A DNA stretch of 64,000 nt from an uncultured delta proteobacterium. Lineage in GTDB: Bacteria; Desulfobacterota; Desulfobacteria; Desulfobacterales; SG8-13. The stretch is taken from NCBI GenBank assembly GCA_963848135.1, contig CAWKCK010000005.1, positions 372,001 through 436,000 on the forward strand, given 5' to 3'. Below are positions 18,001-21,000 of this stretch, piece after piece; the stretch's first letter is position 1; each line of letters opens with the position of its first letter. Position numbers: made by a program.

Positions 18001-21000
18001 ATCGCCTGGGCCCTGAGCAAGACCGGGGGTAAGCTCATTACCATCGAAATCGATGCGAGTCGGTACAAAAAAGCCCTGGCCAATTTCAAAGAAGCCGGGC
18101 TTTCCGAATATATCGATGCCCGGCTGGCCGATGCCCATGAACTCGTGGAGGTGTTAAAGGGTCCATTCGATTTTGTCTTTTCCGATGCCGATAAAGACTG
18201 GTACACAAAATATTTCATCGCCCTGGCACCGAAACTTGTCGTCGGTGGCTGCTTTACGGCCCATAACGCCAGAAATACTAGGCATGGGGAGTATCGGAGA
18301 ATTTATCGACTACGTGGAAAGTCGGCCCAATTTCAAAACCACCATCGACACATCCAGCAGAGCGGGAATATCGATTAGTTGTAAAATCGCATCTGATTGA
18401 GAGGTGCTCGGAATATGTTGTCAAAAATATTGGGATTGATTCTCGGACTGGCCGCACTCAGCCTCTATGCCTGGAAGTTCAAAAATACTGAGTTGTGCCG
18501 ACCATGAATCATGCTGACAATTGCCGGCGGTGTAGGTTACACCGCATATTGGGTTTTAAAGAAATTGATATAACAAGACACTTACTCCACTATGTTCATC
18601 TTTCTCGATACCGAAACCACTGACCGGGGCCCGACGGACCGGTTGTGCCAGATCGCCTTCAAAACTGAAGATGGCCTCACGATCAATGAACTGTTCAACC
18701 CGGGCATGCCGATCTCCATCGACGCGATGACTGTTCATCACATCACCAATGAAATGGTTCAGGATAAACCCTCCTTCCGCGGCAGCGATGCATGGCATCA
18801 GCTCCAGAATCTGATAAAACCGGATAGCAATGTCATGGTCGCACACAATGCGGCGTTTGATGTCGATATGCTCAAAAAGGAAGGGATCGAGCCAAAGAGA
18901 GTCGTTTGCACCTTTAAATTGGCCCGCTATTTAGACAAGGATGGGCTGATCCCGCGTTATAGTCTGCAATATCTGCGTTATTATCTGAAACTCAATGTCG
19001 ATGCCACCGCGCACAGCGCCTTGGGGGATATCCTTGTTCTCGAAGCTCTCTTCCAGCATATTCACGCCAAAGCGGTTGAAGAATTCGAGGATGATGCCGT
19101 TGCCAAGATTATCGAAGTGTCAAATAAACCGGTTCTTTATCGCAGGATGCCTTTCGGCAAGCATAAAGGCCTGATGATGAGTAAAGTTCCGGCTGATTAT
19201 TTGAAGTGGCTCGCCAAGACCGACCTGAATGAAGATTTGAGATATACGGTTGACCATTATCTGAATGCCTGAGAAATAATTGTCGAATATTGTAATGGAA
19301 TGAGCCGTTCGAATGAACGAAAATGAATGGGTCGTCTATCTGGTTCGGTGTGCCGACGAATCGTTGTATTGTGGTATTACCAACGATATCGAAAAGCGTT
19401 TGGTTGCGCATAATACAGGTAAAGGTGCCAAATACACCAAATCACGACTGCCCGTTGAAGCGATCGGTGTCAGCTCTAAAATGACCAAAAGTGAGGCGCT
19501 TAAACTCGAGCGCCGCATTAAGCAAGTTCCTGCCGCCAAAAAGATTTTTGAATTAGAAAAGATTAGCCGTTAATAGGATTTTCCGATTAAACGGTATAAT
19601 TTCGATGGATGATTCACAGAACCCAAAAAAAACGCAGGCGGGACGTTCTTATTTTTTTCAATTGATTTACGGTAAAACCCGCCTTTCGAGATATTTATCT
19701 CGATACAGAACCCAAACCCCGTGTTACGCCTGAGCGCTGATTCCCGATCACGTTCACTTCCTGCTTATCCGCTTTTCAATAATAATTTCGGACATCCCTC
19801 CATATCGCCGCCTCGCACCCATTCCCACGATGATACACCGCCTGCAGTCCGGCGACGTAATGGCGTTTGAACACTGCCACCGCCGTCACGGCTGCCTTTT
19901 ACAGAATCACTATTAAAATCCGTCTTGCGCCACAGAAATAATATTTTACCGGATCTTTAACCTACCTTTAATCAATCGATACACGAGCTGTTTATGTTTC
20001 GATCAGTCGAATGCGGTCCTATCAGACAACCGTATTCTCCGACGGGTCTGGATGATCCGATTGAATCCCAAAATTCTTACGGAAAAGGAGGCCACCATGA
20101 AAAGAAAGTTACTCGGAACGATTTTTGGTTTGTTGATTTTGACATCGTTTGCTGTCGGTCAGGCATCTGCCGCAGAGTTCAACGTCACGGTGAAAAACCT
20201 GACGAACGGCACCTGGTTCACGCCACTTTTAATCACGGCCCATGACAGACACACCGATTTGTTCGAAACCGGCGAACCGGCCTCTGAAGCGCTGCAGGCA
20301 ATGGCCGAAGGAGGAGACACTACCGGATTGGTATACATTGTGGGTGGGGAAGATGCCGATACCGTTGCACTCCCGGCCGGTGATCTGCTCCCTCCCGGAA
20401 AATCGACAGTCGAAGTGTTTCTGAACACCGACCGAACCCGCAACAGGTATTTGTCGATTGTGGCGATGCTGCTGCCCACAAACGATGGATTTGTGGGACT
20501 GGATTCGTTGCGCATCCCCAGAATTCCAGGGACCTACACCTATTACCTGAACGGTTACGACGCCGGCACCGAGGCCAATACTGAACTCATTAATGGCGCG
20601 GGCACACCAGGAGAGCTGGGCATTCCGGCCGCTCCGGGGGGTGATGGCGGAACCGGTGGAACAGGTGCGGCCGCTATCGACACCAACACCACCGTGCACG
20701 TTCACCGCAGCGTTGTAGGGGATACCGATTCCAAAGGCGGTATCAGCGACCTGAACAGCACCATTCATCGCTGGCTGAACCCGGTTGCAGAAGTAATCAT
20801 CACGGTTTATCACGGTCGCCGGCGGTAAAAGATGAACCTATGTTACGAATACGATGCAAAGAGCAGCTAATACGACTTCAGTCCAGGACCAGGAACCAAA
20901 AAAAAACTGTCTGATCTGAACCGATTGCAGGACCCATCTTACGACTCTTTTATCGATTAATCAGCTTGACAGTGCCCACCAGTTTTCTTCTGGCGGGCAC

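Follow-up and report, generated by a model that had tools for sequence, protein, structure and literature searches.

A probable new family of small two-helix membrane selenoproteins in uncultured Desulfobacterales

A short gene within the 64,000-nucleotide stretch of DNA analysed here (the window), from an uncultured delta proteobacterium, belongs to a probable new family of small membrane selenoproteins whose function we infer. Judging from comparison with its homologs, it is quite likely that the gene encodes a 52-residue, two-helix integral membrane protein in which codon 31, a UGA, is decoded as selenocysteine (Sec). On balance, though with less assurance, we also favor a broader reading in which the family comprises undescribed integral membrane selenoproteins of about 52 residues that use Sec almost obligately and Cys very rarely, carry their SECIS within the G-V-G-Y codons of helix 2, and are confined to uncultured Desulfobacterales-type bacteria (relatives of sulfate reducers), often with several paralogous copies per genome.

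RESULTS

A conserved reading frame interrupted by TGA

The features of the gene are as follows.

18400..18404, + strand: Shine-Dalgarno-like AGAGG, 10 nt 5' of the ATG; read from the sequence, a weak feature
18415..18573, + strand: candidate selenoprotein open reading frame (ORF), 52 amino acids and a TAA stop, translated with TGA as U
18418..18477, + strand: predicted helix 1, residues 2 to 21, hydrophobic, with G7xxxG11 (AlphaFold2, pLDDT ~80)
18496..18507, + strand: C-R-P-U motif, read from the sequence as TGC (Cys28), CGA, CCA, and TGA (putative Sec31)
18502..18567, + strand: predicted helix 2, residues 30 to 51, holding G39-V40-G41-Y42 (AlphaFold2)
18527..18545, + strand: SECIS-like hairpin GCGGUGUA-GGU-UACACCGC, 8 bp, -11.0 to -12.4 kcal/mol

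With TGA translated as U, the ORF reads MLSKILGLILGLAALSLYAWKFKNTELCRPUIMLTIAGGVGYTAYWVLKKLI. This translation bears out the in-frame TGA (18505-18507, in the context L-C-R-P-TGA-I-M) and the C28-R29-P30-U31 motif that an earlier survey of the genome had reported, and none of the 30 homologous loci departs from C, R, P, or TGA. The survey had started the protein at TTG 18397, giving 58 residues. That start gives way to the conserved ATG at 18415 and a product of 52 residues, an ATG being present 30 to 34 codons upstream of the TGA in 28 of the 30 loci. Shine-Dalgarno-like words occur at positions -18 to -5 in 30 of 51 distinct family members, and no shared upstream motif emerged, no 7-mer occurring in more than 10 of the 51 regions. 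Because homology between paralogs within one genome begins at about the ATG and stops at about the second stop codon, mostly extending no further, comparison places the ends of the gene at these two points. Gene callers annotate the 30-residue part alone, and most database matches finish in ...LCRP.

In a sample of 401 genomes from the order, 33 of the 400 other genomes contain a match at E ≤ 2e-5, and all 46 matches at E ≤ 3.6e-4 have the TGA in frame. The conservation of the TGA described in the survey's finding was thereby upheld, while the family is larger than the 9 of 150 genomes given there. A species-representative collection (185,579 species) yielded 64 loci, 63 of them true homologs and all 63 from records titled MAG. 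A stop codon occupies the Sec site in 63 of 63 (60 counted as TGA, and the remaining three found to be TGA when checked), and all 66 distinct homologous blocks carry TGA. Outside the order, in a phylum-wide sample of 401 genomes with at most 16 candidates scored in each, the profile matched genome G000 alone.

Coding constraint on both sides of the TGA

Invariant residues flank the TGA on both sides, and variation is spread over the codon positions as in coding sequence. G39, V40, G41, and Y42 are invariant in the 30 loci, and G11, A14, and G16 are conserved. Summed over the 17 codons 3' of the TGA, entropy at codon positions 1, 2, and 3 is 11.2, 5.5, and 18.0, respectively. We weighed these data against the reading that only the 30-residue peptide is made and the sequence after the TGA is an RNA element (a terminator, an attenuator, or a small RNA), or that the ORF is no gene at all. 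The stretch does contain a conserved stem-loop and shows fewer synonymous differences than the sequence before it, with pairwise synonymous-to-nonsynonymous codon differences of 1891:2175 after the TGA and 4284:2471 before. However, variation at third positions prevails at codons +4 to +7, +13, +16, and +17 while the amino acids remain similar, the frame stays open for 20 to 25 codons in 59 of 66 distinct blocks, and conservation ends with the second stop codon. The ORF yielded no terminator-like site, though no search aimed at Rfam-type elements was made, and antisense ORFs occur in only 3 of 30 loci. An RNA element or a spurious ORF is thus the least likely of the alternatives that we weighed.

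A second alternative accepts that both halves are translated, but as two micro-ORFs: the 30-residue peptide would end at a true TGA stop, and translation would restart by stop-start coupling at an ATG two codons on to yield a 20-residue peptide. Codon +2 is indeed ATG in 54 of 59 distinct intact sequences and encodes Met in 27 of 30 loci, and the annotation of the first 30 residues alone by gene callers accords with this reading. The stop at the site, however, is TGA in all 66 blocks and never TAA or TAG, whereas the final stops of the family use all three codons (TGA 14, TAA 8, and TAG 8 in the 30 loci). Codon +2 is ATA, TTG, or TTA in the other 5 of 59 sequences, spacer codon +1 stays Ile through synonymous exchange (ATC 20, ATT 8), the frame between the halves never shifts, and in the window sequence no Shine-Dalgarno-like word precedes the internal ATG. 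Two forms with a Cys codon moreover fuse the halves into a single ORF: L129, a homolog with TGT at the Sec site and no in-frame ATG, and P0053, a database protein sequence with Cys at that position. Taken together, these observations make coupled micro-ORFs improbable.

These two were the only Cys forms found; for comparison, TGA occupies the site in 66 distinct blocks from genomes and in 45 distinct forms from metagenomes. A few database protein sequences carry Leu (P0051 and P0055) or Glu (P0007) at the site, which counts against a Sec reading; Cys is the sole sense replacement confirmed in DNA.

A SECIS-like hairpin in the codons of helix 2

The bacterial SECIS (bSECIS) model specifies a loop of 3 to 9 nt with G in the first two loop positions, an upper stem of 4 to 16 bp, a distance of 16 to 37 nt from the UGA, and a minimum free energy of ≤ -7.5 kcal/mol (PMC13188914). 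The window hairpin (arms 18527-18534 and 18538-18545, loop GGT at 18535-18537) lies within all of these limits, with a GGU loop, 8 bp, a distance of 27 nt after the UGA, and -12.4 kcal/mol. When a 27-nt core was evaluated, 14 of 30 members passed every criterion and the other 16 missed on energy alone, with weak hairpins of -3.8 to -7.2 kcal/mol. The survey had reported an AGGVGY peptide and an 8-bp hairpin; these hold for the subgroup that includes the window's gene but not for most members, which have PLG[LFI]GVGY, a 5- to 6-bp stem, and a CGGGU loop.

The core five pairs form in 30 of 30 loci (150 of 150 cells). At pair 27:37, 56 distinct sequences have C-G and 3 have U-A, with no mismatch in any; covariation is thin, in that a single pair changes, in 2 of the 30 loci, and the signal does not exceed that of shuffle controls. 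Codon usage points to constraint on the RNA. Gly+8 is GGC in 56 sequences and GGT in 3, whereas Gly at other positions draws on three or all four of its synonymous codons; at Tyr+11, TAC occurs in 58 and TAT in 1, versus TAT in 22 and TAC in 1 at Tyr+14; and Ala+12 is GCT in 46 and GCC in 8. As judged from these counts, synonymous sites within the hairpin are frozen. Because the stem sits in the invariant G-V-G-Y codons, the amino acid and RNA constraints are partly confounded. The hairpin alone is also not significant: among 250 random TGA triplets of the window, 9.2% were followed by a compliant hairpin at ≤ -11.0 kcal/mol and 19.6% by one at ≤ -7.5 kcal/mol, a low specificity.

The same genome contains a tRNA-Sec (76.5 bits), SelA, the SelB wing domain, and a SelD gene that itself has an in-frame TGA. 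As many as 388 of the order's 401 genomes carry SelA, which makes co-occurrence with the Sec trait uninformative. In the TGA-containing genes of this genome for SelD and five FlpD/MvhD proteins, the hairpins have loops of GGUC, GGA, GGA, GGC, GGC, and GUU and lie 17 to 27 nt from the TGA at -8.4 to -10.4 kcal/mol; the window hairpin resembles them.

These comparisons bear on whether the UGA might be read by a near-cognate tRNA (Trp or Cys) or through other recoding rather than by SelB and Sec-tRNA. Such readthrough would suit the 16 of 30 members with weak hairpins, the hairpin's lack of significance on its own, and the A that follows the TGA in 29 of 30 loci. It sits poorly with the position, G-G/U loop, and spacing of the hairpin, all of which fit both the SECIS model and the genome's other selenoprotein genes, and with the frozen synonymous sites of the stem. 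The complete Sec machinery, the restriction of DNA-confirmed sense replacements to Cys, and the CxxU pair, a recurrent selenoprotein motif (Table 1, PMC13188914), also argue against it. We therefore regard near-cognate readthrough as very unlikely, though marginally less so than an RNA element. The features generally sought in selenoproteins (a conserved in-frame UGA, Cys homologs, and Sec machinery in the genome) were all found. The survey's proposal of a selenoprotein is supported by the invariant TGA as opposed to varying final stops, coding sequence past the TGA, a constrained hairpin, the machinery, and the Cys forms.

Three RNA runs (a share of only 0.05) were considered for transcription. 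Two of these metatranscriptome libraries yielded contigs of a relative, about 90% identical, that span 18415-18700 across the ORF with the TGA unchanged. As these are relatives' contigs only, they are a weak hint of transcription and no proof.

Predicted fold and database searches

AlphaFold returned a helical hairpin of residues 2 to 21 and 30 to 51 (pLDDT 78.9), in agreement with the two helices that the survey had proposed. The N terminus, loop, and C terminus carry charges of +0.94, +2.08, and +1.59; topology from this distribution is ambiguous, and the charges do not fix the orientation. Foldseek against the PDB retrieved generic helical hairpins only (best E, 4.3), and a sequence profile search of the PDB gave no matches at E ≤ 10.

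The survey had found no Pfam match. Nothing in Pfam-A exceeds its cut-off, but DUF6249 matches below threshold (E, 0.084; 13.3 bits against a cut-off of 33), and at E ≤ 10 only DUF6249 and an enterocin family appear. The best matches in NCBIfam 20.0 (11.7 and 11.5 bits) are below curated cut-offs, and none of 30 members matched a curated family better than E 0.0085. The absence of the gene from curated families was thus confirmed by the Pfam, NCBIfam, and PDB searches. Anti-phage defence models in PADLOC matched no family at E ≤ 1. A 2026 catalogue of 119 selenoprotein families holds nothing alike, and our literature searches on new and small membrane selenoproteins of bacteria, on selenoproteins of Desulfobacterales, and on the CRPU motif turned up no description of this family. 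The word "transmembrane" does not occur in the accessible portions of PMC12013277, PMC13188914, PMC1976440, and PMC13326102; OS_HP2 of PMC1976440 may be the same as another listed family.

Genomic neighborhood

The genes flanking the ORF in the window are listed below.

17716..18378, + strand: O-methyltransferase, class I (Methyltransf_3; Pfam E, 1.2e-20), upstream neighbor
18592..19272, + strand: RNase_T/DEDD-type exonuclease (Pfam), downstream neighbor
19316-19573, after the exonuclease: GIY-YIG protein (Pfam), nearby in 4 of 30 loci

Scanning 129 flanking ORFs of the 30 loci and 41 ORFs around paralogs revealed no conserved partner gene. An O-methyltransferase gene precedes the ORF in 3 of 30 loci (L012, L013, and L015) and does not belong to a conserved context of the family, and the exonuclease is common to the window and L015 only. 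HU is upstream in 8 of 30 loci, DUF4186 and DUF4136 occur in 3 loci each, and paralogs are surrounded by Mrr nucleases, integrases, and transposases. As the neighbors are not conserved, no operon partner supports any function.

The small size, multiple copies, and mobile or toxin-antitoxin neighbors led us to consider a bacteriocin, a type I toxin, or a leader peptide. We dropped these readings because a partner gene is missing and because the peptide after the TGA is conserved while the downstream genes differ. Class IIb bacteriocin alpha peptides (NF038035, lactococcin G-alpha/enterocin 1071A) share a Gly-x-x-x-Gly helix followed by aromatic and basic residues, and 11 of 30 members match this model weakly (best E, 0.0085), all below the 37-bit cut-off. 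In contrast to these peptides, the family has no double-glycine leader and no adjacent transporter or immunity gene, and we consider the match a compositional likeness.

DISCUSSION

The protein would consist of two hydrophobic helices with a short basic loop between them. During translation, SelB loaded with Sec-tRNA(Sec) would bind the hairpin into which the G-V-G-Y-A/T codons fold, with its GGU loop 27 nt past the UGA, and Sec would immediately follow Pro30, where helix 2 starts. Bacterial genes with an in-ORF SECIS, for which Escherichia coli fdhF is the model, likewise have an in-frame UGA followed by a small hairpin in the coding region. The family's loop opens with G-G/U at 26 to 28 nt, within the 16 to 37 nt of the bSECIS model; the difference is that its upper stem is mostly 5 to 6 bp and is built from its own invariant G-V-G-Y codons.

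Cys28 and Sec31 would pair as CxxU at the membrane interface, most likely either switching between the selenol/thiol and selenenylsulfide states or binding a soft metal or metalloid. CxxU recurs among selenoproteins, including SelW-like/Rdx (PF10262), AhpD-like, GrdA, and others (Table 1, PMC13188914). The family shares the Cys-x-x-Sec pair with these redox proteins, and in the model its Sec stands at the N-terminal end of a helix, but it lacks a thioredoxin-like or AhpD fold and sets the motif between two membrane helices in only 52 residues. No Rdx match was found in the genome that carries the window's gene. MerF and MerE are small two-helix membrane metal carriers with Cys pairs. Like the candidate, a MerT-like putative mercuric transport selenoprotein (PF02411, C/SxxU; Table 1, PMC13188914) is small, helical, and membrane-bound, with its chalcogen pair where the membrane begins, and it is a precedent for Sec in a membrane protein that handles metal. 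PF02411 gave no match at E ≤ 10, and no mer genes were found among the scanned neighbors. A redox function is a tentative suggestion and metal or metalloid handling a slightly more doubtful one; otherwise the protein may serve a membrane complex as an accessory subunit or have some other role.

If real, the family would add to the prokaryotic selenoproteome a member invisible to homology-based catalogues, because gene callers truncate it to 30 residues, no curated model exists, and all 63 loci come from MAGs. To our knowledge, few bacterial selenoproteins lie within the membrane; here Sec would be used by a microprotein inside it. The protein would rank with the smallest selenoproteins in nature, and its membrane-embedded selenol may support chemistry without a described bacterial counterpart, such as lipid- or quinone-facing redox reactions or the handling of soft metals or selenium. 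Since 52 residues are within reach of chemical synthesis, the CxxU hairpin could be assayed directly for its redox potential and for metal binding. An RNA signal laid over an invariant peptide motif would, in addition, make the gene a clean natural case of dual coding.

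A short conserved gene probably read through an in-frame TGA

The survey's finding was a 58-residue protein read through an in-frame TGA. The reading frame held up on inspection of the sequence; the length did not, and is revised to 52 residues.

Features of the small gene, as read from the sequence
TTG 18397 or ATG 18415 to TAA 18571-18573, + strand: open reading frame of the small gene
10 nt upstream of ATG 18415, + strand: AGAGG
18505-18507, + strand: in-frame TGA

An upstream ATG lies 30 to 34 codons ahead of the TGA in 28 of 30 aligned homologous loci, and we therefore place the start at 18415. 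Translation from this ATG, with TGA read as selenocysteine (U), gives MLSKILGLILGLAALSLYAWKFKNTELCRPUIMLTIAGGVGYTAYWVLKKLI. Full peptides of the family have 49 to 66 residues, and 46 of the 51 distinct ones have 52 to 55. In one multicopy genome, DNA similarity between paralogues mostly spans the stretch from about the ATG to about the second stop (limits of 405-411 to 555-576 in 1000-nt segments centered on the TGA; three pairs reach further). These limits argue that the unit under conservation is the entire 52- to 55-codon frame and not its 30-codon part.

A sample of 401 genomes from the same order, the window's own among them, was searched in six frames; besides the window's genome, 33 of the other 400 have the protein (E <= 2e-5). 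Every one of the 46 matches with E <= 3.6e-4 carried the in-frame TGA, which bears out in a larger set the earlier count of nine of nine homologs in 150 genomes; the next match (E 9.5e-4) was an unrelated 294-residue frame. A scan of 185,579 species-representative genomes returned 64 loci from 47 assemblies (counted by record prefixes), 63 of them true homologues; the remaining one, a Dehalococcoidia record, was spurious. A stop occupies the site in all 63 (60 counted as TGA and 3 more checked as TGA), and TGA was present in 66 of 66 distinct 114-nt blocks from the genome loci, two further regular-expression matches being unrelated sequence. Final stops in the 30 loci are TGA (14), TAA (8), and TAG (8). 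Since these include TGA, the codon does end translation in these organisms; at the internal position it is specifically TGA that is kept.

The motif W/L-K-F-x-x-T/I-x-L-C-R-P-TGA-[ILT]-[MIL]-x-x-x-[GA]-x-G-V-G-Y is kept in all 30 loci, with A14, K21, F22, L27, C28, R29, P30, the TGA position, G39, V40, G41, and Y42 invariant. Summed column entropies at codon positions 1, 2, and 3 were 12.4, 6.3, and 32.3 over the 24 codons before the TGA and 11.2, 5.5, and 18.0 over the 17 codons after it. Pairwise synonymous:non-synonymous codon differences numbered 4284:2471 before the TGA and 1891:2175 after. About one random point change in four is expected to be synonymous; against that background, the synonymous share on both sides is far above the expectation for unconstrained sequence.

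Other residues at the TGA site

Against 1.84 billion representative proteins, a profile search yielded 41 matches at E <= 0.001, most of which end in ...LCRP and are proteins truncated at the TGA. Among the sequences retrieved, those extending past the site show Trp at this position and frequently pass the final TGA too, which suggests short contigs called under a TGA=Trp code. Public gene calls with Trp at the TGA that continue beyond the final TGA are P0002-P0006, P0052, and P0054. A word-indexed protein search returned 77 matches, with Cys at the site in one protein record (P0053), Leu in two (P0051 and P0055), and Glu in P0007, which both searches found. A metagenome scan seeded with P0053 yielded 66 loci, including 52 motif matches with TGA (45 distinct forms). 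A single locus (L129) reads TGT instead, shares the wording K-Y-K-E-P-P-L-C-R-P-C with P0053, and has no in-frame ATG; another (L177), with TAA, is a decayed copy. Twelve loci are counted outside the motif pattern (L142, L155, L172, L173, L175, L176, L179, L181-L185, and L187), several of them visibly decayed. Exchange between Sec and Cys appears to exist but to be rare.

Some Desulfatitalea-labelled MAGs carry the small gene in several copies (L042-L046, genome G329), two of which are separated by 5 kb, and in one genome the copies number six or more. Among these and the metagenome loci L142, L155, L171-L173, L176, L177, L179, L181, and L183, many copies are decayed, through loss of the start, an additional stop, replacement of Cys by Tyr, or truncation downstream of the TGA.

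Selenocysteine machinery and the hairpin after the TGA

The window's genome (G000) contains tRNA-Sec (76.5 bits), SelA, and SelD. Two SelB wing-domain matches with equal scores of 68.1 bits (G000:C4:4338-4475 and G000:C15:43662-43799, lying in 680- and 530-residue open frames) may represent a duplicated selB or redundant contigs of the assembly. SelA occurs in 388 of the 401 genomes, including all 34 carriers (G000 and 33 others), so its co-occurrence with the small gene is uninformative.

Hairpin downstream of the TGA
18527-18534, + strand: 5' arm, GCGGUGUA
18535-18537, + strand: loop, GGU
18538-18545, + strand: 3' arm, UACACCGC

This 8-bp hairpin (-11.0 to -12.4 kcal/mol), whose loop lies 27 nt after the UGA, fits the bacterial SECIS model (section 5 of PMC13188914) in each of its four constraints. 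The hairpin had been described as conserved, and its five core pairs do form in 30 of 30 loci; the 8-bp form is absent from most members, which have only 5 to 6 bp and a CGGGU loop. The energy limit is passed by 14 of 30 members (27-nt core). Covariation is thin: only pair 27:37 shows changes in both bases, in 2 of the 30 sequences, and across these sequences it did not exceed shuffle controls. A compliant hairpin of equal or greater stability follows 9.2% of 250 random TGA triplets of the window, and 19.6% satisfy the model, so by itself the hairpin proves nothing.

The real evidence for the hairpin is constraint at synonymous sites. Among 59 distinct intact sequences, the eighth codon after the TGA (Gly+8) is GGC in 56 and GGT in 3, and pair 27:37 is C-G in 56 and U-A in 3 without mismatches, the three GGT codons being exactly those with an A partner. 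Elsewhere in the gene, four Gly codons draw on three or on all four of the synonyms. Tyr+11 is TAC in 58 and TAT in 1, in contrast to Tyr+14 (TAT in 22, TAC in 1), and Ala+12 is solely GCT or GCC. Hairpins of like kind follow the in-frame TGA of same-genome controls, namely, selD and five FlpD/MvhD-type genes (L114 on C3; L117-L121 on C5 and C18), each with one in-frame TGA and a G-rich small loop downstream (GGUC, GGA, GGA, GGC, GGC, and GUU; 17 to 27 nt after the UGA; -8.4 to -10.4 kcal/mol). The window's genome is selenoprotein-rich.

Gene neighborhood

Genes around the small gene
14402-15685, + strand: IS110-family transposase (DEDD_Tnp_IS110 + Transposase_20), 2.7 kb upstream of the small gene
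16093-16323, + strand: 4Fe-4S ferredoxin
16336-16767, + strand: MsrB/SelR
16767-17513, + strand: 248-residue protein without Pfam match, overlapping the MsrB stop by one base
17716-18378, + strand: O-methyltransferase, with the small gene 37 nt downstream
18592-19272, + strand: RNase_T-type exonuclease, starting 18 nt past the small gene
20052-20828, + strand: 258-residue Spondin_N-domain protein (E 2.1e-9) that begins with a hydrophobic N-terminal stretch

The O-methyltransferase, small, and exonuclease genes share one strand. Neighbors vary between loci; integrases, transposases, Mrr nucleases, or toxin-antitoxin genes are found close to several of the copies. The genes at 16093-17513 (+) form a tight same-strand row, and locus L013 has a homologue of the 248-residue protein on the opposite side of the small gene. 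The Spondin_N domain is unusual for a bacterium. In 8 of the 30 loci the small gene is directly preceded, on the same strand, by one encoding an HU-type DNA-binding protein, and such a gene is also found near one paralogue in G329 (L016, L018, L027-L030, L037, L041, and L042); this probably reflects synteny between related genera and not a link in function.

A probable new family and its predicted protein

Neither the window's protein nor any of the 30 members matched a Pfam or NCBIfam family above cut-off, as the survey had found for the former. The window's protein had no match among PADLOC models and no sequence match or meaningful fold match in the PDB; database copies are unnamed or "hypothetical protein." Of the 119 prokaryotic selenoprotein families in Table 1 of PMC13188914, nearly all have a Pfam or NCBIfam model, and no two-helix protein of ~50 residues with a C-R-P-U motif is among them; the available portions of the deep-Sep, BSepDB, and Olavius papers mention no such protein. 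This family is probably new. All species-representative records are titled as MAGs, so isolate-based surveys would have missed it. Most are labelled Desulfobacterales, delta proteobacterium, Desulfatitalea, or Desulfosarcina, and one Desulfovibrionales; a homologue on a 3.6-kb contig (L059) belongs to a MAG labelled Gammaproteobacteria, likely through mis-binning, the other records being deltaproteobacterial.

From the 30-row alignment, with C in place of U, AlphaFold2 predicted two helices (2-21 and 30-51; mean pLDDT, 78.9; pTM, 0.43), in agreement with those earlier judged by eye. In this model Cys28 sits just ahead of helix 2 and Sec31 within its first turn. Small-x-x-x-small motifs can be read in both helices. 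Net charges (N-terminus, +0.94; loop, +2.08; C-terminus, +1.59) do not fix the side faced by the loop. Its closest parallels are the CxxU redox selenoproteins and the small membrane metal carriers with a Cys pair; when membership was tested, the protein belonged to neither.

The small gene is real and conserved, and it very probably encodes a selenoprotein. Given its variable neighbors, multiple and decayed copies, and mobile-element surroundings, we infer function from the motif alone: the protein may be a membrane-anchored selenol/thiol pair for redox exchange or for soft-metal or metalloid binding.
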